From contig CAWDZQ010000004.1 in assembly GCA_963807065.1 (NCBI GenBank), positions 1,415,017-1,479,016 on the forward strand: a stretch of 64,000 nt of DNA, written 5' to 3'. Position 1 is the stretch's first letter. Every line of letters starts with the position of its first letter. Shown here piece by piece: positions 1 to 18,770 of the stretch. The stretch comes from an uncultured Chloroflexia bacterium. Lineage in GTDB: Bacteria > Chloroflexota > Anaerolineae > Anaerolineales > E44-bin32. Both the position numbers and the translations under genes were made by a program. The notes under the pieces were generated by a model. The model saw only the letters and a list, made by a program, of their open reading frames with translations, did not search any database and was not told where the DNA came from.

Positions 1-106
1 TGGTGCCCGACGCCAAAGGGAAGCTGCCAGCATGCGTGACCCGGGGGCTGTTGTGGAGGAAACGATCACTTGCTAAATTGGGGCTTGACAGCAGCGCCTA
101 CATAGA
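1..106 (+). mobile_element. Right end of IS110/IS1111-type family A element (copy A1, truncated by window edge)
   Basis: 1-106 is nearly identical to 3711-3816 and 16788-16893 and ends ...TTGACAGCAGCGCCTACATAGA followed by AG-GCGGAG (cassette start). Confidence 0.9.
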
Positions 107-202
107 AGGCGGAGCCGCCGAGGCCGGTAGCTTCGAGCGTCCACGGGCCAGGTATCCTATGCTAGACACCCTCGCAACATCATCTTGTTTCGGAGGATTT
201 GC

Positions 203-689
203 ATGAGCAAGGGAACATCGAAGAAGGACCCGTCCAAAGCCAAGCCGGTGACATTCCGTGCCACGAATTCTGCGCACAGGCAAGAACACAGCAGGAATCG
301 AAGTCCCAGGCGACGTGCTCGACCGTCTCGGGGGAGGCAAGCGTCCTCTTATATGGGTGACGGTGAAGCATCACACCTACCGTAGCGCAATCGGTGCCAT
401 GGATGGAAGGCCGATGATCCCCCTGAGTGCAGCAAACCGGAAATCTGCCGGGGTAGAAGGCGGAGAGAAGTTCGAGATAACCATCAGCCTTGACCTTAAG
501 CCACGCACGGTGACCCCCCCGAAGGATTTGAGGGCCGCGCTTGTCGAGGCGGGGGCGCTTGGAGCATTCGAGAAGTTGGCGCCTTCGATGCAGAAGGAGT
601 ACGTTCGGCAAGTGGTAGAAGCCAAGGCTGTCGAAACCCGCCAGAGAAGGAAAGCAAAGATCGTCGGAAGACTGACCGAAGGCGGTTAG
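203..689 (+). CDS. Cassette 1: YdeI/OmpD-associated (DUF1905 + OmdA-like) protein, one frameshift near 265
   Basis: ATG at 203 after GGAGG. MSKG...VTFRAT joins ILRTGKNTAGIEVP...YRSAIGAMDGRPMIPLSAANRK...FEKLAPSMQKEYVRQVVEAKAVETRQRR, typical of this family. Confidence 0.75.
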
Positions 690-779
690 GGGAGTTCGGA
701 TCCGGCACATTGCGTCCCTCGCCAAGGGGGATCTAGCCCTGCCGGGCGAGCCTCGTCTCCGCCTAACATCTATGAAAGC

Positions 780-1000
780 ACGTCCCCTGTCAATAGCCTC
801 TGTCGTTAAATGAATTTCTTCTCCCCGGTCGGGGAGTTTTCTTTCGTCTGTTGACCTCCAGCGTTTCAAAGCCCAGCCGGTCTCGCCGGAAACATCTATC
901 CCGTAGGACACCGGGACGGTGTTCGCCCTCAATGGGGCATGAGTACGTTCGCCGGGGGCGGCCCAATCATCTCGCGGATCTCAAAGGATCCATGTTAGGT
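780..1000 (-). ncRNA. Putative bridge/seek RNA of IS family B (3' non-coding end)
   Basis: Minus-strand RNA reads CCTAACAT-hairpin-GCGAGATG, matching both halves of target CCTAACATCTCGC. ATAGATG (893-899) is complementary to the donor junction CA-TCTAT. Conserved in all four copies. Transcript boundaries are approximate. Confidence 0.75.
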
Positions 1001-2097
1001 CCGGACCTGCCCCTGGCTGAGCGAGACAGGGGATTTCAACCCTGCAGGGAGCCAATTGGGCGGCTCCCGGTAGGGCTCACCCTTCTTGAGAACCCAGTAG
1101 GTGGCTTCCGCCAAGTAGCGAGCGGTGGCACCCACTGCAACGGCGTGGCCCTTTCGGCGGCGTGTCCGTTCGAAGAGGTGCACGACGTACTTCTTGCGCC
1201 AGTTGGGGTGATGGCGCTGATGGACGATGACGTTGGCGGCTTCGATGAAAGCCCATTTCAGGTAGGTGTTGCACTGTTTGACCATTCGTCCATAGTGCGC
1301 CTTGCCGGCACTTGAGCTGAGCTTGGGAACCAAACCGCAGTAACTGGCGAAGTGTTTGGGGGAGGGGAAACGGTCGATCGAGCCGACTTCCCTGTCGATG
1401 ACGATGGCCAGCACCTTGGCGGGGCCCGGGACGGTCTGAACGAGCTGGATGGTGGGTGTGGTCTGGATGCGTTGGACAATGCGATCTTCCAACTGTTTGA
1501 TATGTACGTTGAGAGCATCCAGGAGCTGAAGCTGCTGGCGAGTGCAGCGGGCGGTCTCGGCCGGCATCTCAACCAGCAGGGCTTCAAGATCCGCCCGCCA
1601 CTTGGCGCTGAAGATGTCACTGGCGGTGTCGAGCGAGAGGGCGAACTTGGCCAGGGTGGAAGAGATGCGGTTCTTGACCCGGGTCCGGTGGCCGGCGAAG
1701 GTCATCCGGGTGCGGGGCAGCTCCCTCTCATCGCGAGGCTGGCAGGAGGGATCCACACAGAGGGGAGCTTGCCCAGGTAGAGCAGGGTGGCCAGGCCCTT
1801 GGCGTCGAGCTTGTCGGTCTTGTGGATGTTGCCCATCATGACCTTGGCCTTGGCGGCGTGGGCCAAGAGGGGAAAGCAGCCGGCGTCTTCGATTTCGTTG
1901 ACGATCCAGTACCAGTTCCCGATCGTTTCGAGGGCGACCGGCGTGCCCTCTGGGAACTGGGATAGGAAGGCTGAAATCGTGCCTGGTGAATGGCCAACCC
2001 TCCTTTGCTGGATGAGCGATCCCGCTTCATCCAGGACGGCAAAGATGGAGAAATGTTTGTGAGCATCGCAGCCGACCGTATAATCGAAGTGAACCAT
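995..2097 (-). CDS. IS110-family recombinase (family B), frameshift near 1740
   Basis: DEDD motifs GCDAHK, ETIG, KTDKLDA, plus C-terminal FASYCGLVP-SSAGK. Split between ORFs 1702..2133 and 995..1756. Confidence 0.9.
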
Positions 2098-2368
2098 GCT
2101 GCACCTCCTGTGGGCGGACAGGGACTTCGACACTCCCAGTCTAGCGGGAGGTGCAGTGCTTTCATCTAATCATCTCGCTGGATCGGACCGGGGATGCGGG
2201 GCGAGTTTGGTGTGTTTGTTGTATGCTCAGGGAGGCTCGGGGGCGGGGCGGATGCGTGGCCCCGGCCGATCAGCTCGAAGGCGTTAGATGCTATGGGGGG
2301 ATGAAGATACGGGTCGCTGCTGATAAGCTCCTTGAAACTCTCAGATCAAGAGAAAGGAGCGCAACATC

Positions 2369-3514
2369 ATGGCAGCGGCCCGCAGTCACGAGTATAGCGT
2401 ATTGGAACAAGTACTGTATCTGGCCTTCGAACTGAGCAACACAAAGTGGAAACTGGGGTTCACGACGGGGCCAGGGCGGCGGCCCCGCGAGCGGAGCATC
2501 ACCGCCGGGGATCTGGAAGCTCTCCAGGAGGAGATCGGGCGAGCGAAGAAGCGGTTCGATCTGCCTGAGAGCAGTCGAGTGGTGAGCTGCTACGAGGCGG
2601 GACGGGATAGTTTTTGGCTTCATCGATATCTGGAGCAGCAAGGGATCGAGAACCTGGTGGTGGACAGCTCGAGCATTCAGGTGAACCGACGGGCCCGACA
2701 GGCCAAGACTGACCGGATGGACTTGGAGAAACTTCTGGGGCAGCTGATCCGGTACCGGGGAGGGGACCGGGAGGTGTGGAGCGTGGTGCGGGTGCCGAGC
2801 GTGGAGGCGGAGGACAACCGGCAGTTACACCGGGAACTGGAAACCCTGAAGAAGGATCGGACGCGGCACATCAACCGGATCAAGTCGTTCCTGGTGGGGC
2901 AGGGCATCCGGCTGAAGGTGGGGAGTGATTTCCTGGAAGAGATTGAACGGGTGCGCAAATGGGATGGCTCAGCGCTCCCGGCCAGTTTGAAAACCCGGCT
3001 TCAGCGAGAGTATCAGCGGCTTCAGCTGCTGCAGGCCCAGGTCAAGGAGCTGGAGCAGGCGCGGGTGGAGGCGATCCGGCATGGGGAAGACGAGAGTGTG
3101 GAGGTGGTGCGCAAGCTGCTGCGGCTGAACGGGATCGGGCAGAACGCCGGCTGGCTGTTCGGGATGGAGTTCTTCAGTTGGCGGAAGTTCAACAATAGGA
3201 AGGAAGTGGGGGCCCTGGCCGGTCTGGTGCCGATGCCGAGGCAGAGTGGCGACAGCTACCGGGAGCAGGGGATCAGCAAAGCCGGCAACCGGCACGTTCG
3301 GGGGATGGCGATCGAGATAGCATGGGGGTGGCTGCGGTTTCAGCCAGAGAGTGAGCTGACGAAGTGGTATGAGGAGAGATTTGGCCATGGGAGCAAACGG
3401 ATCCGGAAGATCGGGATCGTGGCGCTGGCCAGGAAGCTGCTGATTGAGCTATGGCGCTATTTGGAGACGGGGGCCATTCCTGAGGGGGCGGTGCTGAAGA
3501 CACGGTTGATCTGA
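2369..3514 (+). CDS. IS110-family recombinase (family A), 381 aa
   Basis: Motifs AFELS, YEAG, KTDRMD, GLVPMPRQSG, GISKAGN, IVALARKLL. Confidence 0.95.
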   Translation: MAAARSHEYSVLEQVLYLAFELSNTKWKLGFTTGPGRRPRERSITAGDLEALQEEIGRAKKRFDLPESSRVVSCYEAGRDSFWLHRYLEQQGIENLVVDSSSIQVNRRARQAKTDRMDLEKLLGQLIRYRGGDREVWSVVRVPSVEAEDNRQLHRELETLKKDRTRHINRIKSFLVGQGIRLKVGSDFLEEIERVRKWDGSALPASLKTRLQREYQRLQLLQAQVKELEQARVEAIRHGEDESVEVVRKLLRLNGIGQNAGWLFGMEFFSWRKFNNRKEVGALAGLVPMPRQSGDSYREQGISKAGNRHVRGMAIEIAWGWLRFQPESELTKWYEERFGHGSKRIRKIGIVALARKLLIELWRYLETGAIPEGAVLKTRLI

Positions 3515-3554
3515 AAGGGACGGAAAAGGAGAGAACAGGCAAGCAGGACAACAA

Positions 3555-3790
3555 GGCTGGTGTGAGCAGCTCGTTACTCCGCCGGGTCCGAAGGGACCGA
3601 GCGTTAGATGGGGCGCTCACCAGAGCTTCCAGGATCGCCGACGAGCGAACAAAGCATTGGGTGACCGGCCAAAGACGAGCCGGCACGGATAGAAGGTAGT
3701 TCGAGGCACTTGGTGCCCGACGCCAAAGGGAAGCTGCCAGCATGAGTGACCCGGGGGCTGTTGTGGAGGAAACGATCACTTGCTAAATTG
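3555..3790 (+). ncRNA. Putative bridge/seek RNA of IS family A
   Basis: Stem GTGAGC/GCTCAC closes the loop CTCCGCC-(GGTCC GAAG GGACC)-GAGCGTTAG, matching target CTCCGC-CT-AACGC. A second loop AGCAT...ATAGAAG matches the circle junction. Boundaries are approximate. Confidence 0.75.
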
Positions 3791-3888
3791 GGGCTTGACA
3801 GCAGCGCCTACATAGAAGGCGGCTGTCAGTGGTATCCATGAAATCTAGAGATGGCCGCGGATATCTCTATTCGAAAGGTGAGCCAAAC

Positions 3889-4539
3889 ATGACAAAACTA
3901 CGCGTGGACTTCTTTACAATTTCCCTGGACGGTTATGGCGCCGGCCCTAATCAGAGTTTCGATAACCCGCTCGGCGTCGGCGGGGAATCCTTGCACGATT
4001 GGTTCGTCGTAACGCGCTCCTTTCACCAAATGGCTGGGCAAGATGAAGGCGAGACCGGTATTGACAACGATTTCGCGGAGCGTGGCACAAAGAATCTCGG
4101 CGCATTCATTATGGGACGCAACATGTTTGGGCCGCCGCAAGGCGGGGACTGGGTCGATGGCACGTGGAAGGGTTGGTGGGGTGATAACCCGCCCTATCAC
4201 GGGCCTGTGTTCGTGCTCACCCACTATCCGCGTGCGTCAGTCACGATGGAGGGAGGCACTACATACCATTTCGTGACCGATGGCATTCATGCTGCGCTCA
4301 AACTGGCCACCGACGCGGCGAACGGCAAAGATATTCGACTAGCCGGAGGCGTGGCGACAATCCGGCAATACCTTAAGGCAAAGCTGATTGACCAGATGCA
4401 CATTCCAATCTCGCCAATTGTGCTTGGCACGGGTGAATCGCTGTTCTCCGGCATTGACATGGTCAAGCTCGGTTACGTCGTCACTGAACACGTCCCGACT
4501 GCAAGGGCAACACATATTGTTCTGGCGAAACATGAATAG
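3889..4539 (+). CDS. Cassette 2: dihydrofolate reductase family (RibD C-terminal domain) protein
   Basis: Motifs ISLDGYGAGP, GAFIMGRNMF, PVFVLTH, GGVATIRQYL, PIVLGTG. Start ATG follows AAAGGTGAG. Confidence 0.9.
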   Translation: MTKLRVDFFTISLDGYGAGPNQSFDNPLGVGGESLHDWFVVTRSFHQMAGQDEGETGIDNDFAERGTKNLGAFIMGRNMFGPPQGGDWVDGTWKGWWGDNPPYHGPVFVLTHYPRASVTMEGGTTYHFVTDGIHAALKLATDAANGKDIRLAGGVATIRQYLKAKLIDQMHIPISPIVLGTGESLFSGIDMVKLGYVVTEHVPTARATHIVLAKHE

Positions 4540-4568
4540 ACCGAGGCCCTGTTTCCCTCACCCTTCCC

Positions 4569-5916
4569 TGAACGAGCCGGGGACATAGGTAACAGAATCT
4601 TCTAAGGACATCGGTAACACAGATTCTAAGGACATAGGTAACACTTTCTCGAGAGAGGAGGTGGAGCCGATGCCCTGGGAAGGTGTTACCGTGAGCGAGC
4701 AGAAGCAGCGATTCATCGAAGACCACCTGCTGAACTACTACTCCGTGACGGAGCTGGCTGAACGGTTCAGCATCTCCAGAAAGACAGCGCATAAGTGGAT
4801 CAACCGGTACCGGGAGCGGGGCCTGGCAGGGCTTGAGGAGCTGTCGCGCCGGCCGGAGAGCTGCCCATGGCAGACGCCGGGCGCCATCGTCAGCGAGGTG
4901 GTGAATCTGCGGAAGGCGCATCCTCGCTGGGGGCCGAAGAAGCTCCTGGCGTTGATGGGGCGGCGCGATCCACAGCGACGCCTGCCGGCGGCATCGACGG
5001 TGGCCAAGATCCTGTCGGAAGCGGGGCTAGCAAAGCCCAGGCGGCGGCACCGGCGAGCCCATCCCGGCTGTCCGAAGACCCGGCCTGCAGGGCCGAACGA
5101 CATCTGGGCGGCGGACTACAAGGGGCAGTTCAGGCTGAAGAACGGGAAGTACTGCTTCCCGCTGACGGTGAGCGACCTGGCGAGCCGGTATCTGCTGGGG
5201 TGCGATGCGCATCCGGCGATCTCGCTGGAGCGCAGCCAGGCACATTTCAGGCGTCTTTTCGAGATCTACGGGCTGCCGAACCGGATCCGGACCGACAACG
5301 GGGTGCCGTTCGCCTCCAACGCCCTGGCCAGGCTGTCCCAGCTCTCAGTGTGGTTCATTCGGCTCGGGATCTACCCGGAGCTCATTGAGCCTGGGAAGCC
5401 CCAGCAAAACGGTGTGCACGAGCGAATGCACAAGACGTTGAAAGAGGAGGCAACGATCCCACCAGCCAGCAGCTTCAAGGGCCAACAGAAAAAGCTGGAT
5501 GCCTTCCTTCAGGAGTTCAACCAGGTGCGTCCACATGAAGCGCTGGGGATGAAGAGCCCGTCGGAGGTGTACCGCCCATCCAGCCGTCCCATGCCCCAGA
5601 AGATCGAGACCTACGAGTACCCTGGGCACTACCTGGTGCGGAGGGTGAGCCGGTCAGGGACGATCCGGGTGCTGAGGAAGCAGATCTTTGTGAGCAACAC
5701 GCTGCAGGAGGACTTTGTGGGACTGGAGGAGGTGGGAGACGGCGTGTTTGATGTGTACTTCTGCTTCTACCAGATTGGGCGCTATGATTTGCGGGAGGGG
5801 CGAATGCAGGATATTGTGTCGAAGGTGGGCGTGAGCCGAAAGCAGGTCGATCGGCCGGAGCGAGTGTAACCGATGTCCGTAGAACAAAGTGTTACCCATG
5901 TCCTCGGACAGTACCC
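4569..5916 (+). mobile_element. IS481-family element inserted between cassette-2 gene and its attC
   Basis: Three GGACAT(A/C)GGTAACA repeats at the left end (4581, 4607, 4630) and two inverted copies at the right end (5866, 5890), flanking a DDE transposase. Exact termini are approximate. Confidence 0.85.
4661..5869 (+). CDS. IS481-family transposase (HTH + rve integrase core)
   Basis: MPWEG start, HTH FSISRKTAHKW, catalytic WAADYKG, RTDNG, QNGVHERMHKTLK. Confidence 0.92.
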   Translation: MEPMPWEGVTVSEQKQRFIEDHLLNYYSVTELAERFSISRKTAHKWINRYRERGLAGLEELSRRPESCPWQTPGAIVSEVVNLRKAHPRWGPKKLLALMGRRDPQRRLPAASTVAKILSEAGLAKPRRRHRRAHPGCPKTRPAGPNDIWAADYKGQFRLKNGKYCFPLTVSDLASRYLLGCDAHPAISLERSQAHFRRLFEIYGLPNRIRTDNGVPFASNALARLSQLSVWFIRLGIYPELIEPGKPQQNGVHERMHKTLKEEATIPPASSFKGQQKKLDAFLQEFNQVRPHEALGMKSPSEVYRPSSRPMPQKIETYEYPGHYLVRRVSRSGTIRVLRKQIFVSNTLQEDFVGLEEVGDGVFDVYFCFYQIGRYDLREGRMQDIVSKVGVSRKQVDRPERV

Positions 5917-5923
5917 CCACGCC

Positions 5924-6024
5924 GCCCAACAACTCGATGGAGCCGACCCGGCCAGCCGAGCGGTAGCCATTTGTGCGATACTAGTCTTCGGCTGGCCGGG
6001 CGGCTCATCTCGAGGCCGTTAGGG
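5924..6024 (+). repeat. attC2 (101 bp, uninterrupted)
   Basis: GCCCAAC...GTTAGGG with long imperfect palindrome TCGATGGAGCCGACCCGGCCAGCCGA / TCGGCTGGCCGGGCGGCTCATCTCGA. Confidence 0.88.
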
Positions 6025-6047
6025 GGCATTCAGAATAAGGGGCATTC

Positions 6048-6762
6048 ATGGACCAGCCAGCCTCGCCAGGCAGAGAATCAGTGGACCTTCAGAATGCCAC
6101 TTCAGAACTCCGGCAAGAAATCGATCAGGCGGAGCATCTAGCAGGCAATCTCAAGGGAGGGCCGCCAGATAAGACGCGCGAGCAAATCAGTCGCCTACTG
6201 TCTGCGACACGCCCTCCAGCTGGGCAAAGCATCTCTTCTGTGCGCAAATGCGGAACTGCCAGATGCGCTCATTTTGCTTTCCCGGGCGATCTTGGAGACC
6301 CTGTTCTGGGCAAGATATGTCAGCCTATCCGATGAGAACTCCAAGCGATTTGAAGAATTGGCGCTTGAGGATCTGAAGCGTATCTCCCGCAGGAATCTCC
6401 AAGCAGGTTTTGCTCGCATCGTGGATAGCGAAACCAAAGAGGACAAGACAGACGAGTTCCTCGAATCGGATCCAATGAGGTCTGTTCGACCTCGGATGCG
6501 CGTCGAAGAGGTCGCGAATGCTATTGGCTTTGGCCGCTTGTACTCTATGATGTACCTGTTCGACTCGATCTACGCTCACGGAACCTCTTCTGGCCTGCAG
6601 ACAGACTCGAATGTCCACGCACAGCTCTACACATCCGTCTGTGCCGGACTCGGATACATCCACTGCATCAACCTCATTTCATCGGACTGGCTTGGAAGTC
6701 GGAGGCTAACCACTGCTCCCACACTGTCTAGGGTCCTTGGAATTCCCCTCGATGCCCCCTAA
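6048..6762 (+). CDS. Cassette 3: DUF5677-like helical protein, frameshift near 6200
   Basis: LSRAILE-x-LFWARYV and LYSMMYLFDSIYAHG motifs. The stop TAA lies within the attC R'' box. Confidence 0.6.
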
Positions 6763-6764
6763 CA

Positions 6765-8212
6765 TCCATGAAAGCACGGCCCCTGTCAATACCCTCTGGC
6801 GTTAAATGAAGTTCTTCTCCCCCTAGGGGAGTGTTCATCCTTCAGTTGCCCTCCAGCGTTTCAAAGCCCAGCCGGTCTCGCCGGAAACATCCATCCCGTA
6901 GGACACCGGGACGGTGTGCGCCTCTCGATCGAGGCAAGAGTAAGTTCGCCAGGAGTGGCCCAATCATCTCACGGGTCTCAAAGGACCCATACCGCCAACA
7001 ACGCGGCACTTTGTTAGGCGCGGACCTTCTCCTGGCTGAGCGAGACAAGGTGCTTCATCCCTTCGGGGGCCCAGTGAGGGGGCTCCCGATAGGGCTCACT
7101 CTTTTTGAGAACCCAATAGGTGGCCTCCGCCAGGTAGCGAGCGGTGGCGCCGACGGCGACGGCATGGCCCTTGCGGTGTTTGGTGCGTTCATAGAGGTGG
7201 ACGACGTACTTGCGACGCCAGTTGGGATGGTGGCGGTGGCGGACGACAACGTTGGCAGCTTCGATAAAAGCCCACTTGAGGTAGTTGTTGGCTTGTTTCC
7301 CGAAGGACACCGGGACGGTGTGACCATGCGGCCGTAGTGGACGCGCCCTCCGCTGGCGCTGACTTTGGGGACCAGGCCGCAGTAGCTGGCGAAGTGCTTG
7401 GGGGCGCAGAAGCGGTCGATAGTGCCGATCTCAAGAGTGATGACGGTGGCCAGGATGGCACCCACACCAGGGAGGGTTTGGACGAGCTGCATGCTGTGGG
7501 TGAGCTTGATCCGCTGCTTGATTCTCGCTTCCAGTTGGTTGATGTGATCCTGGACCAGCTCGAGCAGTTCGAGCTCCTGGTGCATGCAGCGACCGGTCTC
7601 CTCGGGCAGTGTGTCGATGAGCTTGAGCAGCGGAGGCCGCCATTTGGGGGTGAAGATATCGCTGGTGGTGTCCAGGGAAAGAGCATACTTGGCCAGGGTG
7701 GAATGAATGCGATTCTTGAGACTAGCCCTGGACTTGGAGAAAGCCATACGGGTGCGGGGCAGTTCACGGGCGTCGCGGACGTCGTTGGGTGGGATCCAGA
7801 CCGATGGTAGCTTGCCCAGGTAGAGCAGGGTGGCTAGGCCCTGGGCGTCGAGCTTGTCGGTCTTGTGAACGTTGCCCATCATGACTTTGGCTTTGGCAGC
7901 GTGAGCCAGAAGCGGGATGCAGCCGGCGTCTTCGATCTCGTCGACGATCCAATACCAGTTGCCGACGGTCTCAAGTGCCACCGGGGTCCCTTGGGGGAAC
8001 TGCTCCAGAAACATGCGAATCGCTCCAGGCACGTGGCCGACCCGGGTGCGCTGGACCAGGTCCCCGTTGTGGTCCAGGACTGCAAAGAGCGAGAAATGCT
8101 TGTGAGCATCAATGCCGACCGTATAATCTGAGTGGAACATGCTGCACCTCCTTTGCGGAACGGTGGCTTCGACACTACCAGTCTAGCGGGAGGTGCAGTG
8201 CTTTCATACAAT
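6765..8212 (-). mobile_element. IS1111-type family B copy B2
   Basis: Same IRs and CA core as B1, with ends TCC-ATG and CAT-ACAAT. Confidence 0.92.
7014..8140 (-). pseudogene. IS110 recombinase B2, frameshifted by a 23-nt insertion at 7299-7321
   Basis: HYGRMV|insert|KQANNYLKWAFIEAA. The same insert is in B3, so it is not a read error. Confidence 0.88.
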
Positions 8213-8376
8213 CATCTCGCTGGATCGGACCGGGGATGCTGGGCGAATTTGGTGTGATTGTTGTATGCTCAGGATGGCTCGGGGGCAAGGAGGAGAATGA
8301 CCCCGGCCGATCCCCTTCGGCTGCGCTCAGGATGCTTCGCGAAGCTCGAGGGCGTTAGGCAGATCCAAAGGTAGGT

Positions 8377-9288
8377 ATGGACTACGATCTTTACCATGAT
8401 GAGTCGAAACTCGATGGGTACTGGCATGGAATGCTTCTTGTGCCCAAACCGAAGCGGCAATGGATGCTCGACCGACTTGCCGACGCGAGAGCCAATGCTC
8501 GCTACTCGGAGCCCTTGGGAATAAAGCGAGTACGGAAAGAGAACCGCGTCTTTGATTGCGCGAAATCTTGGCTCACCGTTGCGATCGCCTCGATGCGGAG
8601 CACGGCAGGCGGAGAGCCTGTGCCCATCTATCTCGGCAAGTCAAAGAGGGGTGTTCCTCAGTACCGACTTGTCGAGGAGGCTCCGGGCGCCAAATTCATC
8701 CTCTTCAGGGAAAGCGATGCGCACCAGGAAATGACCAGCCACCCTGACCATGCGAGCAAAATCGAAACTACATTCAGAATTGGGCTCAAGGGTGGACTGC
8801 ACTTCCTCGGCTCCGAGCAGAAGTCAATATGGATCGATAGCTTGCACTTCGACGGCCACGAGCATCTGAAGCGGAATGTCGACGCCTCACGGATCATAGG
8901 CCGATTGGAAGGCCTCAGGAGCTACTGCCACATTCCCGACAAGTCAGACATTCTTCACGACGGCTCAAGTGACCACCGCAGGCCCGACGCGCAATCCTAC
9001 GATGATTGCCAGTTCTTGCAGTTGACGGACTTGCTTGTTGGATCCTTCCGGACAGTGCTTCTCGGGGCCACAAACGATCTTCATCTCCGAGTGGCCTATC
9101 CTGTCGAGTCGCTTGTTCTCCGATATCAAGAAGGCTACGCCAGGATGAAGAACAGTCGATGGTGGAGTTCCTTCTGCATGAGCCAATGCCACCTTGAAGA
9201 TGATCACTGGGTTTTCGAAACCATGGAGTACGAGCCCTACTACGGTGCAGCCCAAATCGCGCTTCCACTGCAAACGGGATCTGCCTAA
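8377..9288 (+). CDS. Cassette 4: DUF3800-like (RNase H-fold) protein
   Basis: N-terminal LYHDES, central FDG and C-terminal LQLTDLLVG motifs. Stop lies in R'' GCCTAAC. Confidence 0.65.
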   Translation: MDYDLYHDESKLDGYWHGMLLVPKPKRQWMLDRLADARANARYSEPLGIKRVRKENRVFDCAKSWLTVAIASMRSTAGGEPVPIYLGKSKRGVPQYRLVEEAPGAKFILFRESDAHQEMTSHPDHASKIETTFRIGLKGGLHFLGSEQKSIWIDSLHFDGHEHLKRNVDASRIIGRLEGLRSYCHIPDKSDILHDGSSDHRRPDAQSYDDCQFLQLTDLLVGSFRTVLLGATNDLHLRVAYPVESLVLRYQEGYARMKNSRWWSSFCMSQCHLEDDHWVFETMEYEPYYGAAQIALPLQTGSA

Positions 9289-9290
9289 CA

Positions 9291-10737
9291 TCCATGAAAG
9301 CACGGCCCCTGTCAATACCCTCTGGCGTTAAAGAAGTTCTTCTCCCCGCAGGGAAGTGTTCATCCTTCAGTTGCCCTCCAGCGTTTCAAAGCCCAGCCGG
9401 TCTCGCCGGAAACATCCATCCCGTAGGACACCGGGACGGTGTGCGCCTCTAGATCGAGGCAAGAGTAAGTTCGCCAGGGGTGGCCCAATCATCTCGCGGG
9501 TCTCAAGGGACCCATACCGCCAACAACGCGGCACTTTGTTAGGCGCGGACCTTCCCTTGGCTGAGCGAGATAGGGTGCTTCATCCCTTCGGGGGCCCAGT
9601 GAGGGGGCTCCCGATAGGGCTCACTCTTTTTGAGAACCCAATAGGTGGCCTCCGCCAGGTAGCGAGCGGTGGCGCCGACGGCGACGGCATGGCCCTTGCG
9701 GTGTTTGGTGCGTTCATAGAGGTGGACGACGTACTTGCGACGCCAGTTGGGATGGTGGCGGTGGCGGACGACAACGTTGGCAGCTTCGATAAAAGCCCAC
9801 TTGAGGTAGTTGTTGGCCTGTTTCCCGAAGGACACCGGGACGGTGTGACCATGCGGCCGTAGTGGACGTGCCCACCGCTAGCGCTGACTTTGGGGACCAG
9901 GCCGCAGTAGCTGGCGAAGTGCTTGGGAGCGCTGAAGCGGTCGATAGAGCCGACTTCGAGACAGGTGACGATGGCCAGGATGGCGCCCACGCCGGGGAGG
10001 GATTGGACGCGCTGCATGCTGTCGGAGAGCTTGATCCGCTGCTTGATCCTGGCTTCTAGCTGGCCAATGTGATCCTGGACCAGCTCTAGCAGTTCGAGTT
10101 CCTGGTGCATGCAGCGGCCGGTCTCTTCCGGCAGCGTGTCGATGAGCTTGAGCAGCGGAGGCCGCCATTTGGGGGTGAAGATATCGCTGGTGGTGTCCAG
10201 GGAAAGAGCATACTTGGCCAGGGTGGAATGAATGCGATTCTTGAGACTAGCCCTGGACTTGGAGAAAGCCATACGGGTGCGGGGCAGTTCACGGGCGTCG
10301 CGGACGTCGTTGGGTGGGATCCAGACCGATGGTAGCTTGCCCAGGTAGAGCAGGGTGGCTAGGCCCTGGGCGTCGAGCTTGTCGGTCTTGTGAACGTTGC
10401 CCATCATGACTTTGGCTTTGGCAGCGTGAGCCAGAAGCGGGATGCAGCCGGCGTCTTCGATCTCGTCGACGATCCAATACCAGTTGCCGACGGTCTCAAG
10501 TGCCACCGGGGTCCCTTGGGGGAACTGCTCCAGAAACATGCGAATCGCTCCAGGCACGTGGCCGACCCGGGTGCGCTGGACCAGGTCCCCGTTGTGGTCC
10601 AGGACTGCAAAGAGCGAGAAATGCTTGTGAGCATCAATGCCGACCGTATAATCTGAGTGGAACATGCTGCACCTCCTTTGCGGAACGGTGGCTTCGACAC
10701 TACCAGTCTAGCGGGAGGTGCAGTGCTTTCATACAAT
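9291..10737 (-). mobile_element. IS1111-type family B copy B3
   Basis: Near-identical to B2, with the same junctions. Confidence 0.92.
9539..10665 (-). pseudogene. IS110 recombinase B3, frameshifted by a 23-nt insertion at 9824-9846
   Basis: Same lesion as B2. Confidence 0.88.
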
Positions 10738-10879
10738 CATCTCGCTGGATCGGACCGGGGATGCGGTGGCATTTTGGCCTGGATGGTGTATTCTCAGAAT
10801 CGGCTACGGGGCTTGAGGGTTCGTGGCCCCGGCCGATCAGCTCGAGGGCGTTAGATCGCCTTGAAGTGGCAGGAGCAAG

Positions 10880-11499
10880 ATGGGGATTCAAGAGATTCAG
10901 CAGTACGTTACTTTGATCAAAGATGTACTAACCGCTTTGGCGGCGGTGAGCGCCGCCTGCATCGGCTTTTTAGGCCTCGCCACCTGGAGAAAGCAGCTCA
11001 GGGGAAGACAGAATATGAGCTGGCAAGGCGCGTGCTTGTAGCGGTTTACAGGCTCAGGAATGCCGTGTCGTACTTCCGAAATCCTTTCATGACCCCCGGT
11101 GAAATCTCCAACTCCATGGAACGCGAAGGAATGAAAGCGGAACCTGCCGACAGGGAATATCGCTTCAGGTCCACATCCGCGGTCTACAAAGTGAGATGGG
11201 AGAAGATTTCGGACGCCTCCACTGACTTGGAAATCAATGCGATTGAGGCAGAGGTTCTCTGGGGGCGGGGAATCCAGGAAACCTTGATAGAAGTGTCGCG
11301 TTTGATTTCCGATCTAAATTTCAACGTGGGATGGTACCTCAGGGAGCTTGCCGGATACGGCAGTGGAAAACCAGACGATATCGAGCGGCTGGAAAAGTGC
11401 GTATTCTCGATGGGTCCGGAAAACGATGAGTTCGCGAAGAAGTTGTCGGCTGCTGTCGAAGCGGTAGAGGACTTTCTCAAGCCGTTTCTAAGAATCTAA
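10880..11499 (+). CDS. Cassette 5: hypothetical protein with N-terminal TM helix, frameshift near 11000
   Basis: ATG after AGGAG. MGIQEIQQYVTLIKDVLTALAAVSAACIGFLGLATWRKQL joins GKTEYELARRVLVAVYRLR of ORF 10861..11499. Confidence 0.7.
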
Positions 11500-11513
11500 T
11501 CGGCGATCTAACA

Positions 11514-12894
11514 TCTATGAAAGCACGTCCCCTGTCAATAGCCTCTGCCGTTAAATGAACATCTTCTCTCTGGTTGGAGAGTGTTTTTCTTCTTGAGTTG
11601 ACCTCCAGCGCTTCAAAGCTAAGCCGGTCTCGCCGGAAACATCTATTCGCCCTCAATGGGGCATGAGTATGTTCGCCAGGGGCGGCCCAATCATCTCGCG
11701 GATCTCAGTGGACCCATGTTAGCCGCGGACCTTCCCCTGGCTGAGCGAGACAGGGGACTTCATCCCTCCGGGAGCCCAGTGAGGAGGCTCCTGGTAGGGC
11801 TCGCCCTTCTTGAGAACCCAGTAAGTAGACTCGGCCAGATAGCGAGCGGTGGCGCCGACGGCGACAGCGTGGCCCTTTCGCCGGCGGTTGCGCTCGAAGA
11901 GGTGGACGACGTACTTCCTGCGCCAGTTGGCGTGGTGTCGGTGAGCCACGATGACGTTGGCGGCTTCGATGAAAGCCCATTTCAGGTAGGTGTTGGCCTG
12001 CTTAACCATCCGCCCGTAGTGGGCACGGCCGGCACTGGCACTGACTTTGGGCACCAGGCCGCAGTAGCTAGCGAAGTGGTTAGGAGCGCTGAAGCGGTCG
12101 ATGGAGCCGATCTCTCGATCGATGACGATGGCCAGCACTTTGGCCGGCCCGGGAACCGTTTGGACCAACTGGATTGTGGGTGTGGTTTGGATGCGCTCGA
12201 CGATCCGGTCTTCCAGCTGCTTGATGTGGCTGTTCAGAGCGTCGAGGAGCTGCAGCTGCTGGGATGTGCAGCGGGCGGTTTCGGCAGGCAGGTGCTGCAG
12301 CAGGTCTTCGAGATCGCTCCGCCGTCTGGAGGCGAAGATATCACTGGCGCCGTCCAGAGAAAGGGCGTACTTGGCCAGGGTGGAGGAGATTCGGTTCTTG
12401 ACCCGGGTGCGGTGGCCGGCGAAGGTCATCCGGGTGCGGGGCAGCTCACGCTCGTCACGGACCTCAGTCGGTGGGATCCAGACAGAGGGGAGTTTGCCCA
12501 GGTAGAGGAGAGTGGCCAGGCCGTGGGCATCGAGCTTGTCGGTCTTGTGGATGTTGCCCATCATGACCTTGGCCTTGGCGGCGTGAGCCAGGAGCGGGAT
12601 GCAGCCGGAAGCTTCGATCTCGTCCACGATCCAGTACCAATTGCCAACAGTCTCCAAGGCAACGGGTGTCGCATCTGGGAACTGGGAAAGAAAGTCTCCA
12701 ATGGCGCCCGGCACGTGGCCGACGCGGACCTGTTGGGCCAGCTGGCCCGCTTCATCCAGCACAGCGAAGAGTGAGAAATGCTTGTGGGCATCACAGCCGA
12801 TCGTATAATCTGAATGAACCATGCTGCACCTCCTTGGGTGGACAGGGAACCAGACACTCCCAGTCTAACGGGAGGTGCAGTGCTTTCATCTAAT
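11514..12894 (-). mobile_element. IS1111-type family B copy B4 (intact)
   Basis: Same IRs and core as B1, and no mini-insertions. Confidence 0.93.
11719..12822 (-). CDS. IS110-family recombinase (family B), intact 367 aa
   Basis: Full DEDD domain and C-terminal Tnp domain in one frame. Confidence 0.95.
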   Translation of the reverse strand: MVHSDYTIGCDAHKHFSLFAVLDEAGQLAQQVRVGHVPGAIGDFLSQFPDATPVALETVGNWYWIVDEIEASGCIPLLAHAAKAKVMMGNIHKTDKLDAHGLATLLYLGKLPSVWIPPTEVRDERELPRTRMTFAGHRTRVKNRISSTLAKYALSLDGASDIFASRRRSDLEDLLQHLPAETARCTSQQLQLLDALNSHIKQLEDRIVERIQTTPTIQLVQTVPGPAKVLAIVIDREIGSIDRFSAPNHFASYCGLVPKVSASAGRAHYGRMVKQANTYLKWAFIEAANVIVAHRHHANWRRKYVVHLFERNRRRKGHAVAVGATARYLAESTYWVLKKGEPYQEPPHWAPGGMKSPVSLSQGKVRG

Positions 12895-13086
12895 CATCTC
12901 GCTCGATGGGACCGGGGATGCGGGGCGATTTTGGAGCGAGCGTTGTGTTATCGGCATGGGCTTGGAGAAGAGATGTTGATCGACCCCGGCCCATCAGCTC
13001 GGACGCGTTAGGGAGCGCCACCAACTTCATCGGCCGCTCCTTTCCCTAAAGTCGGCCTGAACACAATAATGCACACCAGCATGGTT

Positions 13087-13114
13087 TTGTGCTTAGAACA
13101 TTTGTTGCTATAAT
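13087..13114 (+). promoter_or_regulatory. Sigma70-type promoter of the R-M cassette
   Basis: TTGTGC-16 nt-TATAAT with extended -10 TGn, upstream of RBS GAGGAGG. Confidence 0.6.
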
Positions 13115-13153
13115 CTCTCCCGAAATCATTCTGAGGAGGAGAAGTTTCAAACT

Positions 13154-14044
13154 GTGCCTGGGACACACACATCAAGCTTTGGCACCGGCAAGCGCGAGTC
13201 TCATGACTCAAGTGATTTTTACTCTCGCAGCATGCTTTCTTCCACGAGCCTCGCCCCACTCTCGCACACGGACCTAGGCGAAATCCAGGTTCCGTCAGTC
13301 GGTTCATGGGCTGACAATATTTACTGCTCCTCTGCCACAGACATGAAAGAGGTCCCAGACAACTCTGTAGCGCTCTCGTTCACGTCACCCCCATACAATG
13401 TGGGGAAAGACTACGACGACGACATCAATGTGTCAGAGTATCTCCAACTCATTGAGGATGTTGGCAGAGAGGTCTTTAGGGCTCTGCGTCCCGGAGGAAG
13501 ATACCTGATCAACATCGCCAATGTCGGCAGGAAGCCATACATTCCCCTCCACTCGCTCTTTTGGAATCTACATCTAGGCATCGGATTTCTTCCGATGGGA
13601 GAGATAATCTGGCAAAAGGCCAAGGGCGCCAACGGAAGCTGCGCATGGGGTAGTTGGATGAGCGCGAAAGCTCCAAGGCTGAGGGATGTACACGAGTACA
13701 TTCTTGTGTTGGCCAAGCATTCCTATTCCAGGCCCGACAAGGGTGTATCGGACGTCTCCCGAGAGGAGTTCATGGATTCAACACTCTCTGTTTGGCCAAT
13801 TCCACCGGAGTCAGCCAAGAGAGTGGGTCATCCGGCACCATTCCCCATCGCCTTGGCCTCAAGAGTCGTCAAACTCTACAGCTACGTCGATGACGTTGTG
13901 ATTGATCCATTCGCTGGCTCCGGGACGACTTGCGTAGCTGCCGCACAGTTGGGTCGCCACTTCGTGGGATACGACATTTCGCAAGAGTACTGCCAGCTGG
14001 CCGAAGAAAGGCTGCTTCTGGAGGGGCACAAGTCACTAGTTTAG
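13154..14044 (+). CDS. Cassette 6: beta-class N4/N6 DNA methyltransferase
   Basis: Motif IV TSPPY precedes HPAPFP and motif I DPFAGSGT. Confidence 0.92.
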
Positions 14045-14058
14045 GCACACAATTAGCC

Positions 14059-15108
14059 ATGCCCACTCCACGGACCGAAGCATCCGAGTTAGCCGTCGCC
14101 TTTGGAATTCTCTCTCTGAATCCTTCTGAACCACTCTCAGACCAAGAGAGGGAGTATCACTTTCAGTCGACCCTTCCCCTTGCAAGCTATGTATCGTTCG
14201 TGAGTGAGTATTCGAATAATGTGGATCTCCACAGCAGGATGTACAGTGTTGGAAGACGGCTCCGTTCTTCCTTCTCAGAGTTCCAAAGAGTTCGACTCTT
14301 CTCAGATGGGCTGGACCTAACCAACAAGCATCCACTATTTCTGCGGCGTCCGATCTTCTGGTTTCCAACACGCCGGTAAGCGTAAAAGCTATTAGCGACG
14401 TAGTGGCCAATCCGTCCCCCTACAATCTGATCTACAATCTCCCCAGCGGGCAGGCGTTTTCTCAGAACGAACAGAACTGGTACTTGGAACAAGCACCTGC
14501 CGAATTCCAAGATGTGTATGGATTCGTTCGCAATTCAGATTCGAGATTGGCGTATCTTCCATCGCAAGTTGCCGACTTTGAGGCCGGTGCGTCACGACAA
14601 GACCGCAAACTCGTCCAGTTGGCCATAAGCGAATATGAACAGGGTTCCAAGGATGCGTTCATCCGCTTCTACCTAGACATGTGTCACGCCGTTGCGAATT
14701 CATCTGCGCACGAGTTCAACTCGAGGATGTCTGCGTCCCTAGGAGGAAGATCAAGGACGGCGATTGTCGAAAACGTCATGCGCTGGTTCTTTCGGCCTCG
14801 ATGCAGTTCCTTATGTCCTGTGCGGCATCAATTCCAATGACGAGTTTGGGTTGCAGATACCTTCACTGACGGACTTCAAATTCAAATGGGAGCTCACGAC
14901 TATTCACGCGTTGGCTGATTTGAATCGCCGCCAGAGCGTCGTAGGATTCAGGCTGGAATTCAATTCCAAGTCTGGACATCTAAGGCATGTCGCGAACTTC
15001 CACACAGAATTGCGTTGGTCTCATGGCAGATTCTGTGGGGTTCCCGAGGCAAAGCTCTACAAGGACTTCCACTACTACGAACTGCCCTTCTTCCAGCGTC
15101 TAATCTAG
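14059..15108 (+). CDS. Cassette 6: putative type II restriction endonuclease (several frameshifts)
   Basis: Follows the MTase directly. Fragments 13930..14379, 14403..14840 and 14764..15108 join, and an alternative frame reads SDLLVSNTPVSVK (PD-x-K-like). Confidence 0.6.
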
Positions 15109-15120
15109 CCTCTAGGGGCT

Positions 15121-15294
15121 CTCTAACATCTCGCTGGATCCCTGGAGGAACACCAGGATCTTCGACGGACCGGGGATGCCGGGCGAGTTTGGCGTGATTG
15201 TTGTATGCTCAGGATGGCCCAGGGGTTAGGCGGTGACTGGCCCCGGCCGATCCCCACAAAGAACGCGGGACTTCGCAGTTCGAGGGCGTTAGAT
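15121..15294 (+). repeat. attC6, carrying two mini-insertions and IS A3 at R'
   Basis: CTCTAACATCTCGCTGGAT...CGGACCGGGG...CCCCGGCCGAT...GCGTTAG. Confidence 0.85.
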
Positions 15295-16893
15295 GCTATG
15301 GGGGATGAAGATGCGGGTCGCTGCTGATAAGCTCCTTGAAACTCTCGGATCAAGAGAAAGGAGCGCAACATCATGGCAGCGGCCCGCAGTCACGAGTATA
15401 GCGTATTCGAATCGGTGCTGTATCTGGCCTTCGAACTGAGCAACACAAAGTGGAAACTGGGGTTCACGACAGGGCCGAGTCGCCGGCCACACGAGCGGAG
15501 CATCACCGCCGGGGATCTGGAAGCTCTCCAGGAGGAGATCGGGCGAGCGAAGAAGCGGTTCGATCTGCCTGAGAGCAGCCGGGTGGTGAGCTGTTACGAG
15601 GCGGGCAGAGACGCCTTCTGGTTGCACAGGTACCTGGAACAGCAGGGGATCGAGAACCTGGTGGTGGACAGCTCTAGCATCCAGGTGAACCGACGGGCCC
15701 GACAGGCCACACCTGCCCTGGCGGGCGGTGCCAGGGAGACTGACCGGATGGACTTGGAGAAACTTCTGGGGCAGCTGATCCGGTACCGGGGAGGGGACCG
15801 GGAGGTGTGGAGCGTGGTGCGGGTGCCGAGCGTGGAGGCGGAGGACAACCGGCAGTTACACCGGGAACTGGAAACCCTGAAGAAGGATCGGACGCGGCAC
15901 ATCAACCGGATCAAGTCGTTCCTGGTGGGGCAGGGCATCCGGATGAAGGTGGGGAGTGATTTCTTGGAAGAGATCGAACGGGTGCGCAAATGGGATGGCT
16001 CAGCGCTCCCGGCCAGCCTGAAAGCCCGGCTTCAGCGAGAGTATCAGCGGCTTCAACTGCTGCAGGAGCAGGTCAAGGAGCTGGAGCGGGCGCGGGTGGA
16101 GGCGATCCGGCATGGGGAAGACGAGAGTGTGGAGGTGGTGCGCAAGCTGATGCGGCTGAACGGGATCGGGCAGAACGCCGGCTGGCTGTTCGGGATGGAG
16201 TTTTTCAGCTGGCGGAAGTTCCCTGGCCTGCGCCTAGGGCAGGCAACAATAGGAAGGAAGTGGGGGCCCTGGCCGGTCTGGTGCCGATGCCGAGGCAGAG
16301 TGGCGACAGCTACCGGGAGCAGGGGATCAGCAAAGCCGGCAACCGGCACGTTCGGGGGATGGCGATCGAGATCGCATGGGGGTGGCTGCAGTTTCAGCCG
16401 GAGAGTGAACTGACCAAGTGGTATGAGGAACGATTTGGCCATGGGAGCAAACGGATCCGGAAGATCGGGATCGTGGCGCTGGCCAGGAAGCTGATGATTG
16501 AGCTATGGCGCTATCTGGAGACGGGAGCTATCCCTGAAGGGGCGGTGCTGAAGGCACGGTTGATTTGAGAGAGATCCAAAGAGGAAAGGACGGGCGAAAA
16601 GGGACAACCAGGCTGGTGCCCTGGTGCCCAGGATGGGTATGAGCAGCTCGTTACTCCGCCGGGTCCGAAGGGACCGAGCGTTAGATGGGGCGCTCAGCAG
16701 AGCTTCCAGGATCGCCGACGAGCGAACAAAGCATTGGGTGACCGGCCAAACAAGAGCCGGCACGGATAGAAGGTAGTTCGAGGCACTTGGTGCCCGACGC
16801 CAAAGGGAAGCTGCCAGCATGAGTGACCCGGGGGCTGTTGTGGAGGAAACGATCACTTGCTAAATTGGGGCTTGACAGCAGCGCCTACATAGA
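15293..16893 (+). mobile_element. IS1111-type family A copy A3
   Basis: Same ends and AG core as A2. Confidence 0.92.
15373..16568 (+). pseudogene. IS110 recombinase A3 with a 27-nt in-frame and a 23-nt frameshifting insertion
   Basis: Versus A2: insert 15710-15736 (KT becomes TPALAGGARET) and insert 16221-16243. Confidence 0.88.
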
Positions 16894-16913
16894 AGGCAGA
16901 CTGATTTCTTCAG

Positions 16914-17687
16914 ATGAAGAAGCACCATGAACTAGTCGCAAGGTTACTGTTCGAAGACTGGCTTGCTGAGCAGTTGCCTGGCGCTAACATCAAATGGACT
17001 GAGTCAGAAGACCCCCATCCGGATTGGTATCTGTCAATCAACTCTGACGAATACTGGGTTGAGGCAACCACAATAGTTCCAATTGTTCGACATGGAAGGA
17101 ACCTGATCCTTGAGCCATCTCTCTCTGCCTCAATCCACGACTTTGTTGACAGGATCGAAAGCCAAGCCAAGGCTGCAGGCATACTTCATGGCGGCTATGT
17201 ACTTGCGTGTGGCCCAATGCCGAGACGAGGTGGGTTCCGTGACAAGATCGCAGCGGCTGCAATTCAGTACATCGACGACACCAGCCAGCTGGACAGGGCT
17301 CAGCCTCTGGTGTTGGATGACTCTGGCGAATATCGCATTGAAATTCAGAAGTTGAGCAATTTTCGAGACTATCTCGTGGAAATGGTTGATTTGTCTTTCG
17401 TGTCAGAAGCACAGACCAACCAAGACTTCGCAGCTCAGCTTCACCAAATGATCAGTAGGAAAGCAAGGAAATATGCCCATCACACTGTCCCTACGGTGCT
17501 GCTGTTGCTGGACGGCTTCCATATCGTGGACGAAGACACTTGGCTCGCGGCCGCGAAGGAAGTTGATGAGTTAGAGAAATTCGAGGCAGTCTTTCGCATC
17601 AAGCCTGCGAATTCTCCTCTCCTCCTGTTCTCACAGTCCAATCTATGGCCACCGGCCCAGCTTCCACCGGCTTGGCCGTCAATCTAA
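16914..17687 (+). CDS. Cassette 7: hypothetical protein, PD-(D/E)xK-like
   Basis: EDPHPDWYL...YWVEATT motif. Stop lies in R'' ATCTAAC. Confidence 0.65.
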   Translation: MKKHHELVARLLFEDWLAEQLPGANIKWTESEDPHPDWYLSINSDEYWVEATTIVPIVRHGRNLILEPSLSASIHDFVDRIESQAKAAGILHGGYVLACGPMPRRGGFRDKIAAAAIQYIDDTSQLDRAQPLVLDDSGEYRIEIQKLSNFRDYLVEMVDLSFVSEAQTNQDFAAQLHQMISRKARKYAHHTVPTVLLLLDGFHIVDEDTWLAAAKEVDELEKFEAVFRIKPANSPLLLFSQSNLWPPAQLPPAWPSI

Positions 17688-17805
17688 CAAATCGCTGGAT
17701 CGGACCGGGGATGCAGGGCGAGTTTGGCGTGATTGTTGTATGCTCAGGATGGTCCGGGGGCAGGATGGTGCGTTGCCCCGGCCGATCAGCTCGGATGCGT
17801 TGGGC
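17682..17805 (+). repeat. attC7 (124 bp, uninterrupted, last of the array)
   Basis: ATCTAAC-AAA-TCGCTGGATCGGACCGGGG...CCCCGGCCGATCAGCTCGGA-TGC-GTTGGGC. Confidence 0.9.
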
Positions 17806-18377: not shown

Positions 18378-18770
18378 TGAACCAAATCAGGACATAGGTA
18401 ACACAAATTCTAATGACATGGTTAACACTTTGTCGTGAGAGGAGGTGGCGCCGGTGCTTTGGGAAGGCGTGTACGATTTCACGACGACTAGCTGCACAAC
18501 TACTACTCCATCCCGGAGCTAGCGCAGCGGTTAAACATTTCCTGTAAGACAGCAGACAAGTGGATCATCCAATTCAGGGAGCACGGTGAGAGCGGCTTTG
18601 ACGAGCAGTCGCGCCGGCCGAAGAGCTGCCCCTGGAAGGTCGAGGCGGCGATGGCGGCTGAGTCAGCTCAGGTAGGCGAAGCCCACGCGGGAAGGGGGCC
18701 GCAGAAGCTGCTTGCCCCAATGGACTGGCAGAACCCAGGGATGCAAACTCGCCCGGTGCCAACGGCGCTT
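18378..18770 (+). pseudogene. Degenerate IS481 left end and transposase 5' remnant
   Basis: GGACATAGGTAACAC repeat and decayed similarity to 4581-5030, with stops. Confidence 0.75.

Follow-up and report, generated by a model that had tools for sequence, protein, structure and literature searches.

Two Distantly Related IS1111-Type Elements at Opposite Ends of Integron attC Sites in an Anaerolineales Genome: Proposed Guide-RNA-Directed Insertion

Introduction

Integron cassette arrays represent a main route of bacterial gene capture, and insertion sequences (IS) hitting their attC recombination sites can freeze or reshape such arrays. The stretch of DNA studied here, referred to as the window (64,000 nucleotides (nt) in total), belongs to contig C4 of the genome of an uncultured Anaerolineales bacterium (phylum Chloroflexota; assembly GCA_963807065.1, contig CAWDZQ010000004.1). 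Positions 1-17805 of the window were identified as an integron cassette array on the + strand featuring six attC sites of one type, and seven copies of IS110-family elements, assigned to two families termed A and B, were found within it. This locus raises the question of how two families of elements came to reside at the two opposite ends of one hairpin-forming site. Judging from the junctions, the noncoding regions and the relatives of both elements, it is very probable that two distantly related elements of IS1111-type layout invaded the attC sites of a CALIN (a cluster of attC sites that has no integron integrase) by site-specific, guide-RNA-directed recombination.

Results and Discussion

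Insertion Sequence Copies at the Two Ends of attC

Self-comparison of the window and reading of the junctions revealed three family A copies on the + strand, sense to the cassettes, and four family B copies on the - strand, antisense to them. The copies and the attC sites are arranged as follows:

1-108, + strand: A1, family A, right-end tail only; the complete element lies just upstream of the window (C4:1413594-1415128, a BLAST match including a few flank bases)
761-768, + strand: R'' part of attC1, severed by B1
769-2172, - strand: B1, family B, 1404 nt, frame broken, longest open reading frame (ORF) 253 amino acids (aa)
2173-2287, + strand: attC1 body, L'' to R', between B1 and A2
2288-3818, + strand: A2, family A, 1531 nt with the AG core counted once, intact ORF 2369-3514, 381 aa
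6765-8214, - strand: B2, family B, ORF 7055-8140, 361 aa
8215-8360, + strand: attC2 body, R' unoccupied
9291-10739, - strand: B3, family B, 96% identical to B2, ORF 9580-10665, 361 aa
10740-10856, + strand: attC3 body, R' unoccupied
11514-12896, - strand: B4, family B, 1383 nt, intact ORF 11719-12822, 367 aa
12897-13013, + strand: attC4 body, R' unoccupied
15121-15292, + strand: attC5, R'' unoccupied, extra internal stretch, R' severed by A3
15293-16895, + strand: A3, family A, frame broken, extra stretches of 27, 23 and 21 nt
17682-17805, + strand: attC6, both ends unoccupied, two bases off the B target and one off the A core

The family B junction reads CTAA-CA / TCTCGC and is located at the R'' end of attC, with the dinucleotide CA at both element ends; the family A junction reads GCGTT-AG / GC(G/A)G and is located at the R' end, with AG at both element ends. 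The left flank of A1 was found to be a short attC of a different type, the R' of which is one base off the usual R'. Since attC1 accommodates both B1 and A2, it is occupied at both ends. A first-pass annotation, made from the letters of the sequence, had placed all seven copies at attC cores, four at R'' and three at R', and had noticed the double occupation of attC1; coordinates and junctions agree with it in each of these points.

The assignment of the sites to attC is based on several features. Between the short ORFs of the + strand, whose functions are mixed or unknown (OmdA/DUF1905, RibD_C, DUF5677, and N6/N4 DNA methylase), a repeat of approximately 115-170 nt with a conserved core was detected, and a 13-mer is present in six exact copies. 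The arm motif of this repeat occurs 12 times, compared to 1.75 occurrences expected, and 12 were reached in none of 100 shuffles. An inverse core of the R'' type opens every repeat, and a core of the R' type closes it; the consensus sequences of R'' (RYYYAAC) and of R' (GTTRRRY) were read at all six sites of the window as well as at the site of A1, the R' of attC6 being one base off. Moreover, several cassettes begin with the reverse complement of the sequence preceding their own R'', which is the hallmark of cassette cutting and joining at R'. Bottom strands were folded with ViennaRNA using DNA parameters after in silico removal of the IS copies. In attC1, attC3, and attC4, R' pairs with R'' and the L stems contain two bulged bases; attC2 and attC5 fold similarly with extra internal structure, and the ends of attC6 are unpaired in the minimum-energy fold. 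At gathering thresholds, no Rfam match was obtained in the window, neither for a bridge RNA nor for attC. Between its L'' and the conserved core, attC5 carries an extra palindromic stretch of approximately 45 nt (15130-15170) and is 50 nt longer than its neighbours.

Site Specificity within and beyond the Genome

In the whole genome (3.85 Mb, 61% G+C, 4 contigs), 3 copies of family A and 11 copies of family B were detected, and each family features a common insertion point (3/3 and 11/11 copies, respectively). For one B copy, located in contig C3, the right flank retains only a short attC-like stretch. The occurrence of all 11 B copies at one point, together with the excess of the arm motif, excludes chance.

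The site specificity of family B outside this genome was deduced from two copies in one related genome (G301), both of which are located at the same insertion point. No relatives of family B were detected in 300 other genomes of the phylum (E <=1e-60) or in viral contigs, and a single match was obtained in 300 genomes of the class, on a contig holding the IS alone. The family A loci collected from other genomes and metagenomes numbered 33; one of them (L038) was left out as ambiguous, ten have no readable left junction, and L021 and L022, having both flanks in common, probably represent one locus. In all 14 loci of at least 77% identity with a readable left junction, the element is preceded by an attC arm whose last bases are (C/T)GTT-AG, i.e., R'. 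At the same identity level, 17 right junctions were read: 14 of them start with GC, GT is found at one, and the remaining two differ from both. Eight loci of 48-63% identity have the same core and element ends and feature different flanks.

L014 (locus 1300-3050 in genome G302), a 55% relative of family A, resides in a tandem repeat of approximately 100 nt that does not resemble attC. An uninterrupted copy of its target is present one repeat further on.

Uninterrupted counterparts were also identified for occupied sites. The A copy in L009 is followed on its right by 1.2 kb that are 99.2% identical to C3:2278-3471 of the genome studied, where the attC is uninterrupted, and an uninterrupted site in contig C2 agrees with the left flank of L010. 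A metagenome contig from a soil sequencing run joins position 766 to position 2171 and skips 1404 nt, the exact length of B1. In ten metagenome contigs, the attC body is preceded by other, uninterrupted R'' ends.

Guide Segments and the Predicted RNA

In both families, approximately 75-85 nt precede the transposase gene and 200-330 nt follow it (81 nt upstream and 304 nt downstream in family A; 74 and 205 nt in B4). Segments agreeing with the target and the element ends were assigned as follows:

3560-3715, + strand: predicted bridge/seek RNA of A2
3577-3583, + strand: A2 right-target guide, 7-mer complementary to the core G and the right flank of A1
3601-3607, + strand: A2 left-target guide, 7-mer equal to left flank and core, followed by the element's first three bases
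3689-3695, + strand: A2 left-donor guide, 7-mer equal to the element's right end and core, behind the second hairpin
11717-11722, - strand: B4 right-target guide, overlapping the stop codon
11692-11699, - strand: B4 left-target guide, followed by three element bases
11640-11646, - strand: B4 left-donor guide, followed by two target bases

Exact guide matches of 7-8 nt end on the core in both families, and an inner hairpin separates the right-target from the left-target guide in A2. As a control, ISPa21, an attC-targeting element read in plasmid pME-1a, was analyzed, and the same order of guide, hairpin, and guide was recovered.

Relatives of family A at different targets allowed for a comparison of guides and flanks. 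Automatic parsing succeeded for 14 of 16 loci, and the two failed ones (L013 and L026) match by eye. The left-target guide agrees with the left flank and core at 7/7 positions in 11 loci, 6/7 in two, and 5/7 in one (n = 14), one-base differences between attC types being mirrored in the guide. Values for the right-target guide amount to 8/8 in L009 and L027, 7/8 in L023, and 5-6/8 in nine others; L012 and L014 reach 8/8 after a register shift of one base. Summed guide matches (173/210) exceeded those of re-paired loci (mean 140.1, sd 6.9, maximum 169), 173 being reached in 0 out of 10,000 re-pairings, although this figure overstates independence and is no clean probability, since the loci are related to each other. 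RNAalifold applied to 12 family A loci predicted that each loop is framed by an outer stem and by an inner hairpin, with 32 pairs, 13 of them featuring compensatory changes.

In family B, the left-donor guide occurs in two forms and agrees with the element's right end in 11/11 copies. Reprogramming in this family was deduced from one relative of 57% identity (L056), whose left flank, of which 9 nt are available, is different and is matched by its guide at 7/8 positions. B4, the only B copy with a frame of 367 aa, does not possess the 23-nt donor-loop hairpin present in the other 10 copies.

A contig from a soil run carries a 23-nt insertion at position 1674, in the coding part of a B1-like copy. 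By eye, it approximates the reverse complement of the donor-loop hairpin of family B.

The concerted change of guide segments and flanks in relatives at other targets supports programming by a bridge/seek RNA, and we infer such guidance for both families. This fits the first-pass annotation, which had proposed two lineages guided to the two ends of one attC hairpin. Alternatively, the recombinases could recognize the attC hairpin or sequence by protein contacts, the noncoding matches being incidental. Arguments for this are that attC is structured, that the two ends of one hairpin are hit, and that a single 7-mer match between a 300-nt region and a 38-nt target is, by our estimate, expected about once by chance. 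However, the matches end precisely on the core in both loops and both families, they covary with the flanks in relatives at non-attC targets, and A1 resides in an attC of other type and length having only the R' sequence in common. In addition, published relatives are RNA-guided according to PMC11187229. Protein recognition is accordingly improbable.

Recombinases and Their Relationship to Known attC-Targeting Elements

PF01548 and PF02371 (DEDD/RuvC-like and Tnp domains) match the products of A2, B2, B3, and B4, the only copies with full-length frames. The Transposase_20 matches of B2 and B3 are partial, and the PF01548 match of A is marginal (29.5 bits compared to a cut-off of 29), its N-terminal part being uncovered. 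The A and B recombinases share 26% identity over 238 aa (E 4e-14). Given this identity and the common Pfam domains, they are distant homologues; their designation as unrelated in the first-pass annotation does not hold, whereas the lengths (381 aa for A, 367 aa for B) and the N-terminal motifs named there do. The motif GCDAHK was found in 106/120 homologues of B and FEL(S/G) in 118/120 homologues of A. In family A (residues ~19-24 of A2), Glu takes the place where the first catalytic Asp of the IS110 family usually stands, again in 118/120 homologues. A subterminal inverted repeat of 10 nt was found in B and of only approximately 5 nt in A. By their sequence features, both families are IS110-family elements of IS1111-type layout, for which PMC11208160 and PMC11187229 give the definition; the long noncoding region follows the transposase gene.

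The extra stretches of A3 (27, 23, and 21 nt, relative to A1 and A2) are partly palindromic. Three metagenome copies (L017, L024, and L025) share the 27-nt stretch, which keeps the reading frame. A simple palindrome pattern for the extra stretches is not enriched in the genome (23 matches compared to 8-50 for control palindromes).

Targeting of attC by IS1111 elements is known (ISPa21, ISPst6, and ISKpn4), as the first-pass annotation had stated for elements of the ISPa21 type. It could thus be argued that B is a member of the published IS1111-attC group and A a divergent one, with nothing new at this locus. Like ISPa21/ISPst6, B is antisense at the 5' end of attC (PMC3001079), and B has the same core dinucleotide. 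However, the ISPa21 transposase is only 18% identical to B and 27% to A, and plasmid records contain no relative above approximately 34% (B) or 50% (A). The insertion point of ISPa21 lies five bases further into attC, B being closer to R'', and A is located at the other end in the other orientation. We therefore consider B an independent lineage at the known attC end and A an independent lineage at the opposite one; by pairwise identity, neither belongs to the ISPst6/ISPa21 clade, and a mere extension of the published group deserves little credence, although ISfinder may contain named relatives.

The Cassette Array and Its Host Genome

The closest protein matches belong to metagenome-assembled genomes named as Anaerolineales or Chloroflexi. 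With a hidden Markov model (HMM) of the six window sites, nhmmer yielded 67 matches of this attC type in the genome, and about 19 of these sites directly adjoin an integron integrase at C2:23274-24215 (TIGR02249, 461 bits compared to a cut-off of 265). No integrase was found near the array of the window (C4:1412.7-1432.8 kb; nine attC sites including one short site of another type), for which reason it represents a CALIN. Hence, based on sequence, the genome has a complete chromosomal integron besides the integrase-less C4 array. The IS load of the two is uneven: 1 B and 0 A copies were counted among approximately 19 attC sites of the integrase-associated array (C2:800-21600), and 4 B and 3 A copies among the nine sites of C4:1412700-1432800. 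Likewise, perfect B targets are filled in 1/16 cases in the C2 array and in 4/5 cases in the C4 array. The idea that empty attC sites differ from filled ones at guide positions was ruled out by 27 perfect B and 16 perfect A targets that are empty.

An IS481-like element (4661-5869; rve, rve_3, and HTH domains; ORF of 402 aa) resides inside cassette 2. Approximately 250 nt around its start (4605-4870) recur with 74% similarity just beyond the last attC (18389-18635).

The location of the copies within a cassette array, with family A starting three bases after the crossover point, might suggest that they are cassette cargo placed by the integron integrase. This is extremely unlikely, because the elements are not followed by an attC of their own, B is located inside attC between R'' and L'', both ends carry the 2-nt core, the neighbouring cassettes were also found free of IS, and nothing more than a short attC-like stretch lies to the right of the C3 copy of B. 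Artefacts in the assembly of a metagenome-derived genome rich in repeats, suggested by 4 contigs, three arrays reaching contig ends and many broken IS frames, can practically be dismissed, as the same junctions occur in independent contigs from other studies.

Proposed Mechanism and Points Weighing against It

Guide-RNA-directed insertion of both families would proceed as follows. Downstream of the transposase gene, each element would encode an RNA containing two internal loops; this RNA would be made, bind the recombinase, and direct insertion. The 5' side of the target loop would be complementary to the top strand immediately right of the 2-nt core, and its 3' side would repeat the left flank and core, followed by the element's first bases (handshake); the donor loop would act likewise on the joined ends of the element. 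Family B guides would read the R''/L'' arm, with the core CA on the + strand, and family A guides the L'/R' arm and the first bases of the next cassette, with the core AG. In A, B, and ISPa21 alike, the left-target guide would read the conserved arm, and the right-target guide the R core and cassette-specific bases.

In both families, the left end adjoins the hairpin and the element points outward, resulting in opposite orientations on the array. The opposite orientation noticed in the first-pass annotation is indeed seen on the array; it is the mirror image of the palindromic target, both left ends being located at the hairpin, and is to be interpreted in this sense.

Several observations weigh against guide-directed insertion into attC as outlined here. 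The attC folds have weak z-scores (0.9 to -2.0). Most IS copies have broken frames, part of which could be assembly errors in a long-read metagenome genome. The guides allow mismatches: the A1 site is one base off the left-target guide, and the right-target guides of A2 and A3 match at just 5-6/8 positions. The kinship of the covariation loci mentioned above belongs here as well, as does the right-donor guide of family B, which was not convincingly placed. Among the close relatives of A, 3 out of 17 right flanks start other than with GC. Furthermore, most perfect targets are empty, with 27 empty compared to 11 filled 13-mers for B and 16 compared to 3 12-mers for A. Finally, evidence from RNA libraries consists of one metatranscriptome contig over 3581-3821, which may represent DNA carry-over or read-through and is no evidence of a small RNA; all four sequencing runs were used as contigs and convey nothing on RNA ends or levels.

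In a salt-marsh metatranscriptome, contigs of the attC body (2082-2309) reached a summed depth of 82-190, compared to 0-7 for the flanking IS. This may reflect only the many attC copies in the community. Small shares in other salt-marsh and wetland runs are no evidence of habitat.

Probable Consequences for the Array

Insertion of family B splits R'' off from L'', so that the attC should no longer fold and the cassette should be immobilized. Family A is inserted three bases past the integrase crossover point and hence heads the next cassette. Together with the first bases of A, an R' variant remains that is also natural at attC3, so that the upstream attC may still work. If A indeed spares attC and B destroys it, the effect of each attC end on cassette mobility becomes comparable in one system. 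Family A could even be adapted to ride the integron, in combination with a constraint common to A, B, and ISPa21 that keeps the left end at the hairpin; this possibility is tentative and rather doubtful. In that case, IntI could move A together with the next cassette, and the sense transposase gene could be transcribed with the array. Because the right-target guide of A reads cassette-specific bases, element variants would be tuned to particular cassettes. The position of the left end at the hairpin in three independent lineages (A, B, and ISPa21) may stem from a constraint, geometric or strand-related, on bridge recombination where the DNA forms hairpins.

Tetu and Holmes (2008) reportedly described in their abstract the expansion of IS1111-attC elements inside cassette arrays and a cycle of infection, expansion, and decay in Pseudomonas arrays. 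The many broken copies concentrated in the integrase-less C4 array fit such a cycle.

According to this locus, elements of the IS1111 type acquired attC targeting on at least three occasions and at three different positions of the hairpin, each time seemingly by a change of a few guide bases. With guide-directed insertion of A and B, the locus would represent a natural, well-sampled case of convergent reprogramming of bridge/seek RNAs onto one structured site, and it supplies ready pairs of guide and target for the study of recombinases on structured or palindromic DNA.

Comparison with Known Systems

No description of targeting of the R' end, of its sense orientation, of double occupation, or of further attC-targeting IS110 lineages was found in the searchable literature, ISfinder and the founding papers being outside the search. 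To this extent, the novelty presumed in the first-pass annotation stands. The members of the IS1111-attC group differ from family A, which is located at the R' end, is oriented sense, and has the core AG. Their hosts are Pseudomonas or Enterobacteria, whereas A and B reside in Chloroflexota. ISPa21 resembles B in its antisense orientation, its core dinucleotide, and the order of guide, hairpin, and guide, and IS4321 shows 24-25% identity to both A and B.

In PMC11187229 and PMC11208160, IS1111 elements are described to encode a seekRNA downstream of the transposase gene, and the seekRNAs of ISKpn4/ISPst6 match both target strands of attC. ISKpn4 and the 46%-identical ISPa25 occupy the same attC position as the ISPst6/ISPa21 group, and the top-strand match is located 5' of the bottom-strand match in the guides of ISEc11, ISPa11, and ISKpn4 (both from PMC11187229), an order that A2 and B4 have as well.

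Group IIC-attC introns likewise insert in attC near the 5' end and antisense (PMC3001079); these are retroelements, unrelated to A and B and of different mechanism. A closer likeness exists to the bridge RNA system of IS621 (IS110 group) and the seekRNA systems of ISEc11 and ISPa11 (IS1111 group), which, according to PMC11208160 and PMC11187229, share with A and B the DEDD and Tnp domains and the 2-nt core at both junctions. The RNAs of these systems feature target and donor loops with reprogrammable guides, whereas the loops of A and B are predicted from covariation only. ISPa11 and ISPpu9 provide a further parallel, as their guide-directed insertion occurs at one point of a repeated palindrome, which is a repetitive extragenic palindrome (REP) and not attC (PMC11187229 and PMC12288879). 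In comparison with IS621, ISEc11, and ISPa11, the distinguishing feature of families A and B is that they target a structured recombination site at its two ends.

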